Below are positions 2,223 to 32,461 of a DNA stretch of 64,000 nucleotides, piece by piece. Each line of letters opens with the position of its first letter. The first letter of the stretch is position 1. The DNA comes from Ostreococcus lucimarinus. Taxonomy: Eukaryota. The position numbers and the translations under genes were made by a program. The DNA lies in the NCBI GenBank assembly GCA_000092065.1, contig CP000591.1; one strand, written 5' to 3'. Below the pieces are notes generated by a model, which saw nothing but the letters and a program-made list of their open reading frames with translations, did no database searches and was not told the origin of the DNA.

Positions 2223-3764
2223 TCACGCCGCAACCGATTGAGCGTTCGCGTCGCCGAGCACCGCCTCGCTCGCAGTCGGCGGGGCGAGGATCTTCCTGCT
2301 CTCGTGGAAGTATTGATGCGGCGTGTGCACGCCCGCCTCGATTTCGACGCCGTCGTGAATCGCCGCAAACGTCATACCGCACGCGATTTGGTAGTGCATA
2401 TTCGTCGCCTTCTCGACAATCGCGTGCGACTTAGCACCAGAGATTTTCAACGTACCGAGCAACTCGTGCAAACGTGCGCCGTTATCCTTGACGCCAGACG
2501 TGAGCGTCTTGAACGGACAACCGTGCGCGTCCTTCACGCCCGGATCCGCTGCGATGCACTGACCGCACGCGTGCGGGGTGTAGTTGACGCGCTTCCCTTC
2601 CTTACCGTACGCGTGTCTGATACCATACGCGTAATCTTTTTCAAACTTCTCCGCGGAGCATTTCGGGTGCTTTGTGAACTCTGTCTTCCAAAACACGAGC
2701 GCCTGGTCCAGAGGCAAGCCGATGCCCTTCAAATACAGTTGCAGTTGTCGTCGACCGCCGTGCGTCAGGTGATGATCTTTCTTGAGCGCCTTGTAAAGCT
2801 GGCGCATGCACAGCGGGAAAGACTCTTGCGTGGCTTCGATGCCGGCGATCGACATCGTGCCGTCTTCGCCTTGGAAATCGTACCCGCTTCCCGATCGACG
2901 GTTGTGCACAGATTTCAAAAGCGGCGTCAAACGGTGAGCCTCCTTCTTTTCAAACTTGTTGAAGAGCGTGATGGCTTCGGCGACCATCTTGTTCAGCATC
3001 GTCTTAAACCGACCGAACACGAGTTGATCGAGGGTTTCTTTACGAATCCACGCGTTTCCGCCGATCAAGTACGCCCGTCTCGACTTGACGAGCGGGCACA
3101 CCTCTTCGAAACCGACGACGAACCAACGCGACGCCTCGCTCGCCGCTTCCTCGCACATCCTCTGGTACTCCATCGTCCCGAGCTTACCATCTTTACTGAG
3201 ACTTCGACGCATCTGCCTATACTCGTGGTCCGCCATCAAGACGTCCCGCAAATCGTCCCGTCTCTCCCGCACTTCCTTCTCGCTCGCCCGCGCGTAATCG
3301 TTAAACCCATTCGTCCGCATAAACTCCATCTTCGCGTCCAAACTCAGCTCACCGTACCGATACTTGAACAACTCCAACTCGTTCTCCCGAAACCATCGCC
3401 TGTGTTCTTCGCTTCGACAGCTCGCCAACCTCAACAAAAAATGACTCGTCGCGTCTCTCGCCGCGCCCTCCGCGTCAAACGTCCCCCCCGTCGTCCGTCG
3501 CATGTTATATTCCTCCTCCGCGCTCGCGATCGCCCGTTTCAATTCCTCATCCTTCTTCCCACCGCTTCGCGCGTCGTCGATCGCCCGCAAGACGCCGTAC
3601 CGATCCATCGCCGCGCGCTCCAGGTACTCGATGGAGCGTTCGTCATCCGGCGCGGTGTTGTACGCGTCCAACCGCGCCGCGTTTCCGCCGTACTTTCGCT
3701 CGAGCGCGGTCTTGGCGCGCGCTTCCGCTTTCTCTCGATTCGTGCGCAGCGCGCCGAAGACCAT
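2223..3764 (-). CDS. PRIM2: DNA primase large subunit (PriL/PRIM2)
   Basis: The C-terminal Fe-S domain matches human PRIM2 closely: SFPLCMRQLYKALKKDHHLTHGGRRQLQLYLKGIGL...FWKTEF...YGIRHAYGKEGKRVNYTPHACGQ...HGCPF...HYQIAC. ATG verified at 3764..3762. Confidence 0.85.
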   Translation of the reverse strand: MVFGALRTNREKAEARAKTALERKYGGNAARLDAYNTAPDDERSIEYLERAAMDRYGVLRAIDDARSGGKKDEELKRAIASAEEEYNMRRTTGGTFDAEGAARDATSHFLLRLASCRSEEHRRWFRENELELFKYRYGELSLDAKMEFMRTNGFNDYARASEKEVRERRDDLRDVLMADHEYRQMRRSLSKDGKLGTMEYQRMCEEAASEASRWFVVGFEEVCPLVKSRRAYLIGGNAWIRKETLDQLVFGRFKTMLNKMVAEAITLFNKFEKKEAHRLTPLLKSVHNRRSGSGYDFQGEDGTMSIAGIEATQESFPLCMRQLYKALKKDHHLTHGGRRQLQLYLKGIGLPLDQALVFWKTEFTKHPKCSAEKFEKDYAYGIRHAYGKEGKRVNYTPHACGQCIAADPGVKDAHGCPFKTLTSGVKDNGARLHELLGTLKISGAKSHAIVEKATNMHYQIACGMTFAAIHDGVEIEAGVHTPHQYFHESRKILAPPTASEAVLGDANAQSVAA

Positions 3765-3824: not shown

Positions 3825-4039
3825 GTCGCGATTTCAAATTTCGTGGCGTCGGCGCCGCGCGCGGTGCGATTTCGAGGGTCGGCCTCGCGCACCGCGCACT
3901 GTTTACCCATACGCGCGTCGCGATTTCAAATTTCGTGGCGTCGGCGCCGCGCGCGGTGCGATTTCGAGGCGTCGGCGCCGCGCGCGGTGCGATTTCGAGG
4001 GTCGGACCTCGCGCACCGCGCACTGTTTACCCATACGCG
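3825..4039. repeat. Tandem repeat of a roughly 92-bp unit, about 2.3 copies with an internal 32-bp re-duplication, in the bidirectional promoter between PRIM2 and the 4129 gene
   Basis: gtcgcgatttcaaatttcgtggcgtcggcgccgcgcgcggtgcgatttcgagggtcggcctcgcgcaccgcgcactgtttacccatacgcg occurs at 3825-3916 and again at 3917-4039. Each unit ends in cactgtttacccatacgcg. Confidence 0.7.
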
Positions 4040-4128: not shown

Positions 4129-5364
4129 ATGTCCGCGGCGCTGGCGGAGACGATCGCGCGCGACGCCGCGGACGGACGCGCGGGCGAGTACGACCTCGCG
4201 GGATTCGGCGAGGCGTGGGTCGACGCGCTCGTCGAGGCGGCGTTCGCGACGCCGACGCGCGCGAAAGGAGGGTTTTACGCGTCGTGCAAGTTCATCGTCG
4301 GCGGCGGGAAGAAGACGCGGGCGAAGTACGACGATGAGGTGGTGAAACACTTGACGGCGGCGCTGCGCGCGAGGGGGTTCGAGGACGACAGAGGCGCGAG
4401 CGCGTGCGAGGCGTGCCAAGGGACGTATAAGTACCAGCACGACACGGATAAGGATTTAAAATACTTGCACGTGTTTCCGAGGGTGACGCACGAGGCGGAG
4501 GGGGGGGAGGCGGCGGCGGCGGCGGGCGGGACGCAGTCGCCCGAGTATCGCGCGTGCGCGTGCGATTTGGAGGAGTTCGAGCGATTGGTGGAGATGTATT
4601 GTCCGAGCTTTTCGCAAAAGCGCGCGCTGTTGCGCAGGATGAAGGTGATGGAGCACGCGCTCGGGGCGCTGGAACAAAAGGTGATCGCGATGGAGAGCTT
4701 GAATGATCGCGAGCAGACGATGTACGACTCGATGGTTGAAGTCGCGGCGAAGATTGAGTTCTTACAACAGGCGCTGGACGACATGATCAAGAAGGGTCGA
4801 TTGACGAAAGGCGAACAAGGAGAAATCGTCGAAGATTTGGAGCTCAAGCTCGAAGATTTGAACCTGATGGTGAACGAGGCGAACGAGGAGGGGAAGCCGA
4901 AGCGCGCGGAGATGCTCGAGAGCAAGAAGGAAATCGTCGTCAAGAAGATTGACTCGGTGCGCGCGAAACCTCCAATCGTGTACACGGTGCCGCACGAACG
5001 CGAACTTTTGGACTTGAAGAAGGAGCTGAACTCGCTGAAAAAAATTGCCGCACAATCGAAAGGAAAGTTGATGAGCGGTGCGGACGCGGCGAAGTGCGCG
5101 AATATTCCCAAGCTCGAAGAGCGCATAGCGAATTTGGAAAACTCCGAGGAAAAAGGATGGTACGAGGACGAATGCCGAGCGCTTCTCTTTCCACCGGTCG
5201 CCGAAAAGAAAGCACCGGCGAAGGCCAAGGCGAGTGGCGCCAAAACCAATTCGGGATGGCTCACCAAGGCGGCAAAGGGCGGATCGCGCGGCGGAGGTGG
5301 ATCCGCGAAAGCTTCGTCGACTCGTGGTCCTTCCAACCCGTTCGCGATGCTCGGCGACGATTAG
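4129..5364 (+). CDS. Coiled-coil protein with a possible N-terminal Smr-like domain
   Basis: ATG at 4129. The N-terminal CKFIVGGGKKTRAKYDDEVVKHLTAAL resembles the Smr-domain signature. It is followed by a long K/E-rich heptad region and a G/S/K-rich tail. The upstream part of the 3502 ORF overlaps PRIM2 and is rejected. Confidence 0.5.
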   Translation: MSAALAETIARDAADGRAGEYDLAGFGEAWVDALVEAAFATPTRAKGGFYASCKFIVGGGKKTRAKYDDEVVKHLTAALRARGFEDDRGASACEACQGTYKYQHDTDKDLKYLHVFPRVTHEAEGGEAAAAAGGTQSPEYRACACDLEEFERLVEMYCPSFSQKRALLRRMKVMEHALGALEQKVIAMESLNDREQTMYDSMVEVAAKIEFLQQALDDMIKKGRLTKGEQGEIVEDLELKLEDLNLMVNEANEEGKPKRAEMLESKKEIVVKKIDSVRAKPPIVYTVPHERELLDLKKELNSLKKIAAQSKGKLMSGADAAKCANIPKLEERIANLENSEEKGWYEDECRALLFPPVAEKKAPAKAKASGAKTNSGWLTKAAKGGSRGGGGSAKASSTRGPSNPFAMLGDD

Positions 5365-5411: not shown

Positions 5412-8400
5412 TCAACGTTCACTGTGGTGTCTGGGCGGTCGAAACGGCAAAGGTTCGACGTTCCAAATCTTCGCCGCGTACTCCCGAATCGTGCGATCGG
5501 ATGAAAACATCCACATCGAACACGCAGCTTCGATGCACTTTGCGGTCCACTTCTCTTCGTACTGATACGCCGCATCGGCTTCTGCAATCGCCCCTAGATA
5601 CGACGGAAAATCATGCGCGGTGAGGTAGACGTCTTTCCTCGGATCGATGGCGTCCAAGAGCTGGTTGTACGCTCCGTCGTCCGGCTTGCCGAAGATGCCG
5701 GCGCGAATCATTCCCATGGCGCGGTGAAGACGAGGATCAATTTTTGGTGGGTCGTGCGCCATCTTGCGTCGAATCGCCGCGACTTGATCCGCCTTCGCGC
5801 CAAACGTGAACATGTTATGCTCGCCAATCGCTTGTTCTATCTCGATGTTCGCCCCGTCCATTGTACCCACGATCAATCCGCCGTTCATGACGAACTTCAT
5901 GTTCCCGGTGCCGCTCGCCTCCATACCCGCAGTGGAGATGTGTTGCGAGATATCACTCGCGGGAATGAGAATCTCCGCTAGAGACACGTTGAAGTTGGGA
6001 ACGAACACCACCTTGAGTAAGTCACGACACGCCGCGTCGGAGTTCACGACTTCAGACACGGCGCATACGAGCATGACAAGATTTTTCGCCATGACGTATC
6101 CGGGCGCAGCTTTGCCGGCGATGATGTGCACGCGCGGCACCATTGTTTTGCGCTGTTCGGGCGTAGCCTGCGTGATTTCGGCGTAGCGGTGCACGATTCC
6201 AAGGACATTCAACAACTGGCGCTTGTATTCGTGTATGCGTTTGATTTGCATGTCGAACAAGGCGTTGGGATCGACGCGGATATTCATCGAACGGTACAGC
6301 CATTCCGCAAGCGCTTGCTTGTTCGTTTGCTTGGCCGCGCGCCAACGCTGTCGAAATTGCGGATCTTGCGCCATCGTCTTGATCGGCTCGAGTCGCTTGA
6401 GATCGTTTACCCACCCAGGGCCGACCATGCCCGTGTAAATGCTCGCGAGCGCTGGATTCGCTTGCAACAGCCATCGTCGCGGCGTGACACCATTCGTCAC
6501 GTTGATGAACTTTTCTGGCCACATCAACAAAAAGTCGGGGAATAGCAAAGACTTCAAAAGCTTGGTGTGGATCATCGCCACCCCGTTTACGGTGTGCGAC
6601 CCGATGACGGCTAAGTTGGACATGCGTACCATCTTGGGTGATGACTCTTCGATGATACTCATCGACGACATGCGCGCGGTGTCGTTTGGCCACATCTTTT
6701 GAACCTCAAGCAAAAACCGGTGGTTGATTTCGTAAATGATTTGCATGTGTCGCGGCAAGAGCTCGGTGATCATCGGCACCGGCCACTTCTCCAGTGCCTC
6801 CGGGAGAATGGTGTGGTTGGTGTACGCGAAGACTTTTCTCGTTATTTCCCACGCCTCGTCCCAAGGTAGACGCTCGATGTCGAGGAGCAAACGCATGAGT
6901 TCGGGAATAGCAATCGCCGGGTGCGTGTCGTTGAGCTGTATCGCCACCTTGTCCGGCATATTCTTCATCGTCGTAGACCCACGACCGACGTTCTTCTTGA
7001 AACGTCTATAGATGTCTTGTAAAGTCGCGCTGACGAAGAAGTATTGTTGCTTCAATCGCAAACGCTTACCTTCTTCCGTGGCGTCGTTCGGGTACAGCAC
7101 TGACGTGATACTCTCGCAACGTTCCTTCGCCTCGACCGCGCCGTAGTAATTACCGGCGTTAAACGAGGCGAGATTGAATTCGTGCGATGGCTTGCTACTC
7201 CACAGTCGCATATTGTTGGTGTTGTACGTACCGTAGCCTGGAATCGGGGTATCGTACGCCTGCGCCATGACGACTTCGCCGCCCTCCCACGCGTACAACG
7301 TGTTCCCGTCCGGATCTTGAAACTCTCGAACGTGGCCGAATAAACGAACCGGGTACTGCACGTCTAATCGTTCAACTTCCCACGGGTTCCCATCGGTAAG
7401 CCAATAATCTGGAAACTCCACTTGTTTACCATTCACGATTCTTTGCTCAAACATTCCGTACTTGTAGCGAATGCCGTACCCCCACGCGGGATAATTTTGC
7501 GTCGCGAGCGTGTCCAAGAAACAAGACGCCAAGCGCCCCAGACCCCCGTTCCCGAGCGCTGGCTCTTTTTCCTCTGACATGATATCTTCCAAATCGTATC
7601 CAATCTGCCGCAAAGCCTCGGCGTAGGCGCCTCGTAACCCGAGATTTGAGACGGCATTGCCGAGCGAGCGGCCGATTAAAAATTCGAGCGACAGATAGTA
7701 CACTTTCTTCGCCCCTTTCTTGGCCGAATACTGCTGCGTGTCCGTCCATCGCTCGATCAATCGATCTCGCACCGAGTGCGCGGTGGCTTGATAAAACGAG
7801 CTCGTATCGAGCTTGTACCTCCTTCGCGCGAGCGTATACTCCACGTGCCGCACCAACGATCGCTGCAAACTCGCCACGTCGTTTGGCAAGTACGTGCTCG
7901 ATAGCTTCCACAACAACTCCTTGTGCGCCAAGTGATCGACGCCCATCTCTGCATCGTCGACGTACTGACGCGGGCGATCGAGGATCGTCGTCGCGCTCTC
8001 CAAGAACGATGACTCGGTCACGTCCGCGCGATCGCTTTCCATATCCACGCTAAACGAATCCAGCTGCCCGAGCGAGTCTTTCCTCCGATGCTGCAACAAA
8101 GACGCTCCGCTCGACCGTGGACTGTGCAAGCTCACCGGCGGTCGCCCTCGATGATGATTCTGATGTTGTTGGTACTGATATCCACCCCTGTCGACGCCCA
8201 CGATCACGGGCATACCCGTCTCGTCGTCCCCTCGCGCGTACGATCCCGCGCCGCTCCTCGCCATCCGACCGCCGTACGCGCTCGACGTCGACGAGTCGTT
8301 CTCCTGCGCCAGATTCGCCCGCAAGCTCTGTTCGAGCCACGCGTCCACGCGCGTGTTTTGCCCGCTCGCCACGGACGAGCCCGGCTTCCGCCTCGCGCTC

Positions 8401-31213: not shown

Positions 31214-31549
31214 TCACGCGCGCGCGTCGTCGTCGTCGTCGTCCTTCGCCTCCCCCCTCCCCTCCTCCGGCTCGTACTCCACGCGCAGCAGCGCCTCCAG
31301 GCTCTCTCGCTTATACATCAGCGCGTCCCGTTCCTTATCGATGTCCCACGCCTCGCTCGGGTCGTCCGTCCGTCGCCATCGCTTATTCTCCTCGACCCGT
31401 CGTCGCTCATCCTCATCCCAGATCTCATCGTCGTCTTTCTTCGACCACGCGCGCGCGATCGTCGACGTCCCGGTCCCGCGCGCGCGCGCGATCCATCGCG
31501 GCGCGCGCGCGACGACGCGGCACCGCGGCTTCGTCGTCGTCGGCGGCAT
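31214..31549 (-). CDS. Small highly charged hypothetical protein (111 aa)
   Basis: ATG verified at 31549..31547. K/D/E/R/W-rich (KKDDDEIWDEDERRRVEENKRWRR...EAWDIDKERDALMYKRESLEALL), which does not look like a GC-frame artefact. No homology recognised. Confidence 0.35.
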   Translation of the reverse strand: MPPTTTKPRCRVVARAPRWIARARGTGTSTIARAWSKKDDDEIWDEDERRRVEENKRWRRTDDPSEAWDIDKERDALMYKRESLEALLRVEYEPEEGRGEAKDDDDDDARA

Positions 31550-31634
31550 CGACGAGTGCGGCGGCGTCGACGCGCGCGCGGATCGCGCGGCGCGCGTCGA
31601 AAATCGGTCGCGTACTGTTTGCCCACACGCGACG

Positions 31635-31647
31635 TTTTCGCGCCAAA
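31635..31647 (+). promoter_or_regulatory. E2F-like site TTTTCGCGCCAAA (copy 1)
   Basis: An exact match to the E2F consensus TTTSSCGC with a CCAAA flank, inside repeat unit 1. Confidence 0.4.
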
Positions 31648-31702
31648 TTCATTGACATGTCGCCTCGCACATCGGTCGCGGACTGTTTGCCCATACGCGA
31701 CG

Positions 31703-31715
31703 TTTTCGCGCCAAA
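31703..31715 (+). promoter_or_regulatory. E2F-like site TTTTCGCGCCAAA (copy 2)
   Basis: The identical 13-mer in repeat unit 2, 12 bp upstream of the 31727 ATG. Confidence 0.4.
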
Positions 31716-31726
31716 TTCATTGACAA

Positions 31727-32461
31727 ATGTCGCCTCGACGACGCGGACGCGCGACGACGACGCCGGCGCCGACGCGAGAGCGCGTCGCGACGACGGACGC
31801 GACGGCGCGACGGGAGGCGGCGATGACGGCGCGCGCGACGCGCGAGCGCGACGACGGCGCGCGGGCGACGACGGACGAGGGCGGCGCGCGGGCGACGACG
31901 GACGAGGATCGCGCGCGGCTGACAAAGTATTGGTTGCGACGACGGTGCTCGACGGGATCGCACGCGAGCGAGGCGACGGAGGTGGGGATGCTGACGGGAG
32001 GGGAGAGCAGCAACGAGAGCCATCAGGCGACGGGACGGCGAGCGCGACGGGGGGGGTCGGCGTCGGCGTCGACGCCGCCGGGCGCGGGGCGACGCGCGGA
32101 GAGAGGAGGGATCGATACGCCGGGACACTTCGCGTTCGCGACGCCGATGAGCGCGAGGGTGCGCGAGGAGGGGATGACGACGCCGAGAACGCCGACGCTG
32201 GCGAACGATAGTCCGGATCGAGCGCGGTTGGATGAGCTCTTGGCGGCGCCCGTGAAGCCGAATTTCGGTACGCGGGCGGCGATCGAGTGCACGCCGCGAC
32301 ACACGCCGTTGAAGCTGCGATTTGATGATAACGTGGACGTCGTCGTGAGTGGAACGCACGCGACGAGTAAGAAGCGCGCGCGTGGGAAGTTGAGCGATGT
32401 GTTCAAGGCGACCAAGTCGACGACGCCGAGGCTCACGCGCGCGCGAAAGGCGATGTTGTGA
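31727..32461 (+). CDS. Hypothetical S/T-P-rich basic protein, a possible cell-cycle (CDK-substrate-like) protein
   Basis: ATG at 31727 lies inside repeat unit 2. The N-terminal 120 aa are low complexity. The C-terminal half (DTPGHFAFATPMSARVREEGMTTPRTPTL...ECTPRHTPLKLRFDD...KKRARGKLSDVF) has multiple S/TP sites and a KRAR basic patch with protein-like composition. Confidence 0.4.
   Translation: MSPRRRGRATTTPAPTRERVATTDATARREAAMTARATRERDDGARATTDEGGARATTDEDRARLTKYWLRRRCSTGSHASEATEVGMLTGGESSNESHQATGRRARRGGSASASTPPGAGRRAERGGIDTPGHFAFATPMSARVREEGMTTPRTPTLANDSPDRARLDELLAAPVKPNFGTRAAIECTPRHTPLKLRFDDNVDVVVSGTHATSKKRARGKLSDVFKATKSTTPRLTRARKAML

Follow-up and report, generated by a model that had tools for sequence, protein, structure and literature searches.

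Long promoter-proximal sites include those of vertebrate ZNF143/Staf (about 18 bp), the Drosophila DRE/DREF and BEAF-32 sites, and the Reb1/Abf1 sites of yeast. Here we describe a 16-mer from a 64-kb stretch of the Ostreococcus lucimarinus genome, which is referred to below as the window. Like the sites named above, the 16-mer is long, specific, and stand-alone, lies within approximately 100-250 bp of start codons, favours divergent gene pairs, is free in its orientation, and accompanies unrelated genes. Unlike them, it turns over fast between species, and the likeness would be one of function, with no homology implied. The core of the Reb1 site is TTACCCG; the substring TTACCCA of the 16-mer resembles it, but a critical base differs, and the commoner G variant, TTGCCCA, also fails. 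When the motif was compared with forkhead-type sites (RYAAAYA; core TRTTTRY), TGTTTGC and TGTTTAC were found to fit, with the G/A variation falling on R, but the frequent and mostly intronic form TGATTGC (T5-to-A) breaks the core.

Binding sites can also be amplified by transposons, as in the case of CTCF sites spread by SINEs. For plants, the spread of E2F sites by MITEs is reported by Morata et al. 2018 (PMC5950925). The 16-mer resembles these two cases in its many copies, its lineage-specific gain at promoters, and its carriage on a repeated element, whereas its promoter copies are devoid of transposon hallmarks. E2F sites (TTTSSCGC) also adjoin each 16-mer at 31.6 kb and are duplicated together with it; they differ from the 16-mer in sequence, and they are conserved at orthologous promoters where the 16-mer is not. 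Finally, the E2-IE introner families of the polar Micromonas clade are treated in Simmons et al. 2015 (PMC4540971) and van Baren et al. 2016 (PMC4815162). The identical 16-mer core is present in introns on Micromonas-like contigs, whereas the copies in the window are intergenic and carry no splice signals.

Four copies of the 18-mer ACTGTTTRCCCAYACGCG, all on the plus strand, are present in the window (Table 1), and the same four were the only ones recovered from the whole window when up to three mismatches were allowed. Dinucleotide-preserving shuffles contained 0.19 copies on average, and none of 100 shuffles reached four. These shuffles, together with a reversed-motif control that was near zero (see below), rule out a chance or low-complexity origin, and an earlier note on this DNA was right that two divergent promoters share a core which is unlikely to recur by chance (4 copies versus 0.19 expected). 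Local duplication at two independent loci accounts for the four copies. Both loci sit between divergent start codons, according to a codon-usage ORF caller that was trained on the window (coding share about 89%) and may err in single distances or gene-pair classes. One of the promoters does belong to a core S-phase replication gene, as had been claimed: the identity of PRIM2 was confirmed by Pfam (PF04104/PF26466), and its protein shares 69% identity with that of O. tauri; a 99% match was found in JGI, ENA, and Logan data alone. A spermidine synthase encoded nearby has 100% identity to a UniRef entry of Ostreococcus sp. 'lucimarinus', in line with an origin of the window in that species or a very close relative. 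The 111-aa ORF on the left of the second promoter was not called in every orthologous locus.

Table 1. Features of the two motif-bearing promoters in the 64-kb window.
Feature	Position	Strand	Remark
PRIM2 (DNA primase large subunit)	2223..3764	-	left of first divergent promoter
PRIM2-promoter tandem duplication	3826..4039	+	90-bp unit 3826-3915, 124-bp unit 3916-4039
PRIM2-promoter palindrome GATTTCAAATTTCGTGGCG	3830..3848	+	again at 3922-3940
18-mer ACTGTTTACCCATACGCG	3898-3915 and 4022-4039	+	
16-mer copy 1 ACTGTTTACCCATACG	3898..3913	+	closes first PRIM2-promoter repeat unit
16-mer copy 2 ACTGTTTACCCATACG	4022..4037	+	closes second PRIM2-promoter repeat unit
411-aa gene, no Pfam domain	4129..5364	+	conserved divergent partner of PRIM2
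111-aa ORF, no Pfam domain	31214..31549	-	left of second divergent promoter
Second-locus tandem units, 2 x 68 bp	31605..31740	+	
18-mer ACTGTTTGCCCACACGCG	31614-31631	+	
16-mer copy 3 ACTGTTTGCCCACACG	31614..31629	+	
Palindromic E2F-type site TTTCGCGCCAAA	31636..31647		6 bp past 16-mer (3 bp past 18-mer)
18-mer ACTGTTTGCCCATACGCG	31682-31699	+	
16-mer copy 4 ACTGTTTGCCCATACG	31682..31697	+	
Second E2F-type palindrome TTTCGCGCCAAA	31704..31715		second 68-bp unit
244-aa gene, no Pfam domain	31727..32461	+	right of second promoter

The repeat in the PRIM2 promoter had been described as two units of about 92 bp; by measurement the units are 90 and 124 bp long, and the longer one holds an extra internal duplication of 31 bp. 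The right-hand junction of this duplication lies 2 bp past the 16-mer. At the second locus, the 68-bp unit begins 9 bp upstream of the motif and consists, in order, of cggtcgcgN, the 16-mer, CG, ACG, the E2F palindrome, and attcattgaca; at each of the two loci, one duplication junction is found within 10 bp of the motif. The earlier statement that the motif is tandemly duplicated each time is correct for this strain but does not extend to other contigs of the same species, among which copy number varies. A single unit with one motif, the counterpart of copy 2 in the window, was found at the PRIM2 promoter in all nine informative contigs of the same-species set L177-L186, which come from several assemblers. 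Two of these nine carry a T13C variant, which is the sole polymorphism within the motif among them and affects a position where change is permitted. The same-species contigs of the second locus (L187-L190) include two with two units and one with a single unit, and three of the contigs terminate in or beside the repeat; at the position of copy 3, the same-species contigs read CCCATACG. Some single-unit calls could be explained by the collapse of short reads, and three contigs of the type 'contig_NNNN', a naming that may indicate a long-read assembler, likewise show one unit. The promoter tandem duplications are strain-level polymorphisms. Several metagenome contigs stop, or have an N gap, exactly at these promoter repeats, including one (L180) with an assembly gap at the PRIM2-promoter repeat.

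An exact-match scan of public metagenome contigs with the query ACTGTTTRCCCAYACG returned at least 120 loci. Among the matches listed, 107 of the 128 analysable ones are located on contigs with a GC content of at least 0.54 and with neighbouring genes typical of green algae, such as glucan-water dikinase, histidine-kinase rhodopsin, and FBPase. The other matches, on low-GC contigs, appear to be due to chance, and the 51 matches on viral contigs were judged to be at about chance level. The flanks of the motif are unrelated among the matches listed, with weak preferences at positions -4, -2, -1, and +16. Because the bases past ...ACG are not conserved across about 100 other loci listed, the core comprises 15-16 nt and not 18. 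The conserved unit is the stand-alone 15-16-mer ACTGTTTRCCCAYAC(G/A), which excludes the final CG of the 18-nt core that had been proposed.

In 819 kb of alga-like DNA, we counted 70, 69, 36, and 39 copies at 0, 1, 2, and 3 mismatches, respectively, compared with 0, 0, 0, and 1 copies for the reversed motif. The near-matches give a less biased view, because they were not selected by the exact scan. Positions 2-4, 6-7, 11-12, and 14-15 are near-invariant, and positions 8 (G/A), 13 (T/C), and 16 (G/A) vary freely; most substitutions affect position 16 (G>A), 8 (G>A), 13 (T>C), 5 (T>A), or 9-10 (C>T). On one contig with 68% GC (L051), the motif faces a UPF1 gene whose nearest named relative is that of Mamiellaceae sp. 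RCC2288 (66% identity), indicating that the element reaches beyond Ostreococcus within the Mamiellophyceae. The lineages with the motif are Ostreococcus 'lucimarinus', one that is nearest to RCC2288, and the introner-bearing Micromonas-like contigs. In two orthologous sets (L034/L068/L073 and L012/L076) the motif is kept and the immediate flanks have diverged, although this evidence is biased because the sets were found via the motif. No paper was found that gives the 13-mers of the motif for an alga, and no prior description of the motif was found in the literature searched, although Piganeau et al. 2009 (J Mol Evol 69:249) may already list it.

The genomic position of the motif was analysed in the window and 80 further loci, together 608 kb with a coding share of 77%; intron-rich contigs were excluded. 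In this set 69 matches are intergenic, and 15 fall within sequence called as coding (p about 1e-30, binomial test). Where a gene was called on both sides, 25, 15, and 1 matches lie between divergent, tandem, and convergent pairs, respectively, whereas 15.5, 18.7, and 6.7 would be expected from the intergenic lengths (p = 0.003). The distance from the motif to the nearest facing ATG has a median of 130 bp (interquartile range 86-246). Between tandem genes the motif occurs in either orientation (roughly 7 versus 9). In divergent promoters, the nearer gene sees the reverse complement in about 16 of 22 cases, a bias that is taken as not significant because neither the tandem pairs nor the window follow it. 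At least about 100 GC-rich Mamiellophyceae-like contigs carry the motif, mostly in intergenic DNA and with a preference for divergent pairs, in agreement with the suggestion of a promoter-resident, lineage-specific element. The reverse complement of the motif, CGTATGGGCAAACAGT, contains ATG and reads GT...AG. The upstream ATGs that the earlier note pointed out on the minus strand do exist in the sequence, but they are incidental, since the motif has both orientations relative to genes.

Among 56 non-redundant promoter copies, we found no convincing target-site duplication (no offset/k-mer combination clearly above the permutation expectation), no flanking stem or hairpin, and no partner 6-mer that survived multiple testing. 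A transposon end or MITE was rejected, as there is no target-site duplication, no terminal inverted repeat, no likeness of the flanks, and no inverted partner nearby. The search of 20 motif-bearing loci (68.5 kb) returned no Rfam family at gathering score, which speaks against a nearby snRNA or other RNA gene; with no snRNA genes found at these loci, a plant-type snRNA upstream element (TCCCACATCG-like) was rejected as well. Plant-type telomere-box sequences (AAACCCTA/TAGGGTTT) were observed within about 100 bp of the motif on L010, L024, L045, L068, L073, L099, and L116, but a frequency of 3 among the 56 non-redundant copies does not clearly exceed the background.

Several further arrangements of the motif were observed. 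In apparently orthologous, gene-poor loci (L033, 96-275; L041, L050, L061 (about 4490-4660)), a 10-bp word forms a tandem array next to the motif; in L033 the word is CTCGTACCAG, repeated seven times. On the other side are inverted copies of the word and the short palindromes GTACCAGGAA/TTCCTGGTAC; the repeat word varies by locus (GTACCAG, GTCCCAG, GTATCAG) and the layout is constant. Other tandem arrays include the motif in their unit (L105, 1-200 and 5900-6092; L082, 1363-1560; L044, about 7060-7130). L105 carries two motif units at either end, and its ends are inverted copies of each other; this arrangement may be a genuine terminal structure or a product of the assembly. The 2.7-kb contig L045 encodes a Harbinger/PIF-type DDE protein (854-2449; Pfam Plant_tran, DDE_Tnp_4), the motif lies at 2538-2553, 88 bp upstream of its ATG, and the contig has no second motif copy and no terminal repeat. 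In L023, a Myb-domain gene faces the motif. At about position 1950 of L089, a reverse-oriented copy comes right after GTAAGT, which resembles a donor site, so that this copy could be part of a very short intron.

It had been proposed that the motif is linked to S-phase and replication genes. PRIM2 is indeed one bearer, and the second promoter has E2F-type sites, so that it is probably cell-cycle regulated. However, the 30 motif-facing genes that were annotated with Pfam have unrelated functions, in metabolism, translation, transport, and signalling, and one of them is DNA-related (an organelle-type PolA); the predicted enrichment among replication or cell-cycle genes is not seen. They include genes for an rRNA methyltransferase, ankyrin proteins, Band 7, RRM, and Myb proteins, PurF, a sulfate symporter, FBPase, UPF1, MBOAT, a Glu/Gln-tRNA synthetase, an amine oxidase, glucan-water dikinase, Utp12, SecY, an eIF4G-like protein, dymeclin, a histidine-kinase rhodopsin, and the Harbinger-type DDE protein. 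Moreover, the motif is absent, at up to three mismatches, from all four PRIM2 loci (L122-L125; 9.5 kb each) examined in O. tauri and in three further species; the gene order of phosphorylase, partner gene, PRIM2, methyltransferase, and further on MCM2 is kept in these four species. At four orthologues of the second locus (L191-L194), the motif is missing from three and degraded in one (L192), where ACTATTTGTCCATACA stands 19 bp upstream of the E2F site. These orthologue comparisons at the two loci are the sole unbiased tests of conservation, and the result fits a weak or dispensable function, or a recent insertion.

Instead of the motif, the orthologous promoters conserve its neighbours, namely the E2F palindrome and a TTTGAAA..TTTCAAA element. 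The palindrome TTTCGCGCCAAA, which within the window is limited to the second promoter, is matched by E2F-type sites (TTTTCCCGCCAAA, TTTGGCGCCAAA, TTTGGCGGGAAA) that are kept at all four orthologous second promoters, and a TTTGAAA(A)TTTTCAAA-like core of GATTTCAAATTTCGTGGCG is common to the PRIM2 promoters of five species (the window plus four). The E2F core TTTSSCGC is absent from the 16/18-mer itself, and E2F-like sites stand beside just 5 of the 56 promoter copies. Since the neighbour elements are conserved and the 16-mer is not, the cell-cycle signals are the neighbour elements, and we consider it very improbable that the 16-mer is a cis-element controlling S-phase, DNA-replication, or cell-cycle genes. 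It is a separate, evolutionarily labile addition beside elements that look gene-specific, namely the E2F palindrome at 31.6 kb and the TTTCAAATTTC element at PRIM2. Judging from its sequence conservation, the palindrome GATTTCAAATTTCGTGGCG is a candidate for a real control element of PRIM2; one same-species T/C polymorphism falls within it. Because its orthologues in four other species also have E2F-like sites upstream, the 244-aa gene is probably a target of E2F in S phase that has so far escaped annotation.

The motif also occurs in a family of repeated introns. The 91 independent, unselected motif copies cluster on about 20 contigs with a GC content of 0.55-0.60 (among them L011, L013, L020, L021, L024, L025, L030, L040, L047, L058, L060, L089, L095, L102, L107, L113, and L119 as contigs of the intron family). 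In the introns, the motif is in the sense orientation relative to the gene and directly 5' of the branch point AGACTGAC, within the layout GTAAGTATTTCCCA..., ACTG(T/A)TTGCCCATAC(G/A), AGACTGAC, a T-rich stretch, and CAG. The short introns are about 80-95 nt long, longer modular forms contain two or three motif-like copies, and many introns are present per contig. The introns on L011, L013, L020, L021, and others have, in sense, GT/GC as the donor, CTGAC as the branch point, and AG as the acceptor. The copies in the window have no donor, CTGAC branch box, or acceptor; located between divergent start codons, they are not introns. The intron-family contigs were also observed to contain bare motif copies, of which several lie in antisense within regions called as coding.

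According to the definition published for Micromonas (PMC4540971), an E2-IE consists of G[CT]N2-7, a 50-nt motif, N7-37, and AG. Matched by this published layout and not by a consensus, the intron family is probably, and provisionally, that of the polar Micromonas introners E2-IEt1/E2-IEt2. The motif string does not appear in the supplement of Verhelst 2013, which covers CCMP1545 and RCC299 introners. Simmons et al. (PMC4540971) note that each introner has a segment complementary to the donor site. Pairing between donor and motif was found in one of four folded introns, and no fold was better than its shuffles (z about 0), so that donor-motif RNA pairing was rejected for the introns.

According to the main rival explanation, the motif is all or part of what remains of a small mobile element akin to the repeated introns; it would land preferentially in open promoter DNA and be largely neutral there, and its apparent conservation would reflect young copies. 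A multi-copy intron family has the identical 16-mer as its fixed core, and the promoter copies could therefore be passengers of sequences that look mobile. The absence of the motif from orthologous promoters of sister species, the mostly perfect and not decayed state of the promoter copies, the polymorphic copy number, and the small likelihood that a motif of about 28-30 bits would recur by point mutation are all in line with such an origin. However, the 56 promoter copies lack target-site duplications, inverted partners, and flank similarity, those in the window lack a GT donor context and a CTGAC branch box, and the copy next to a transposase gene has no second end. In addition, the presence of the bare 16-mer in lineages as far apart as Ostreococcus and the RCC2288 relative would be difficult to account for if the sequence itself were under no constraint. 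On balance, we regard this explanation as unlikely, but as the one that deserves most attention beside the preferred reading.

A replication-related site, either an origin-recognition site or a protein-bound fork barrier, appears much less probable. The density of about one locus per 30-70 kb is similar to the spacing of origins in yeasts, and a duplication junction within 10 bp of the motif at each locus is what fork stalling might leave behind; but two junctions are an anecdote, and a transcription-type factor would explain the promoter bias and the orientation independence equally well. Slightly lower still do we rate a signal at the RNA level, such as a 5'UTR/uORF element, a splice-site mimic, or a pairing partner of intron donors. 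The intron copies are always in sense and beside the branch point, CCCATACG pairs with the donor GTACGTATTGGG in one folded example, and the reverse complement has the ATG and GT...AG features mentioned above. These points are countered by promoter copies that show both orientations without bias relative to the nearest gene, by donor pairing in one of four introns with folds no better than shuffles, and by the absence of Rfam families near the motif at the 20 loci.

The preferred reading, to which we assign a probability of about 0.5, is that the 16-mer is recognised by a sequence-specific DNA-binding protein that is conserved across the Mamiellophyceae and acts at promoters. A protein site at the DNA level is suggested because the motif is long and constrained, its flanks are unconserved, it is independent of orientation, it prefers shared promoters, it accompanies unrelated genes, and it occurs in several lineages. 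The putative factor would act in either orientation at promoters of functionally unrelated genes, chiefly divergent ones, and a general promoter, architectural, or nucleosome-excluding factor would fit better than a pathway-specific regulator. The features of a general promoter factor, that is, promoter-proximal location, enrichment at divergent pairs, orientation independence, and diversity of genes, were all found for the motif. New sites probably arise by copying, through duplication or insertion, because turnover at orthologous promoters is fast and a site of about 28-30 bits is improbable by point mutation. Local tandem duplication would be one route of copying, and the copy-number polymorphism of this species shows it directly; small mobile sequences that carry the site may provide a second route, as suggested by the 16-mer being the core of the intron family. 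A bolder and rather doubtful version, which we consider less probable than the mobile-relic origin discussed above, holds that one protein, possibly derived from a transposase, serves the promoters and also mobilises or targets the repeated introns of polar Micromonas. If this were true, the promoter sites of Ostreococcus and the intron-generating elements of Micromonas would be two outputs of one protein-DNA system, and the defined site could be used to fish for the protein, giving a molecular handle on the spread of introners.

With regard to annotation, the gene-specific signals (E2F and the PRIM2 palindrome) are now separated from the general element, and it should be noted that some assemblies break or end in promoter tandem repeats. 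Cis-regulation is little known in the Mamiellophyceae, picoalgae that are ecologically dominant and have tiny genomes densely packed with genes. An element of 16 bp that is highly specific, shared across genera, linked to shared promoters, and easily mutated in transformable Ostreococcus offers a practical entry to a major putative DNA-binding factor, and its reuse as the core of an intron family ties promoter architecture to the unsolved origin and spread of introners.
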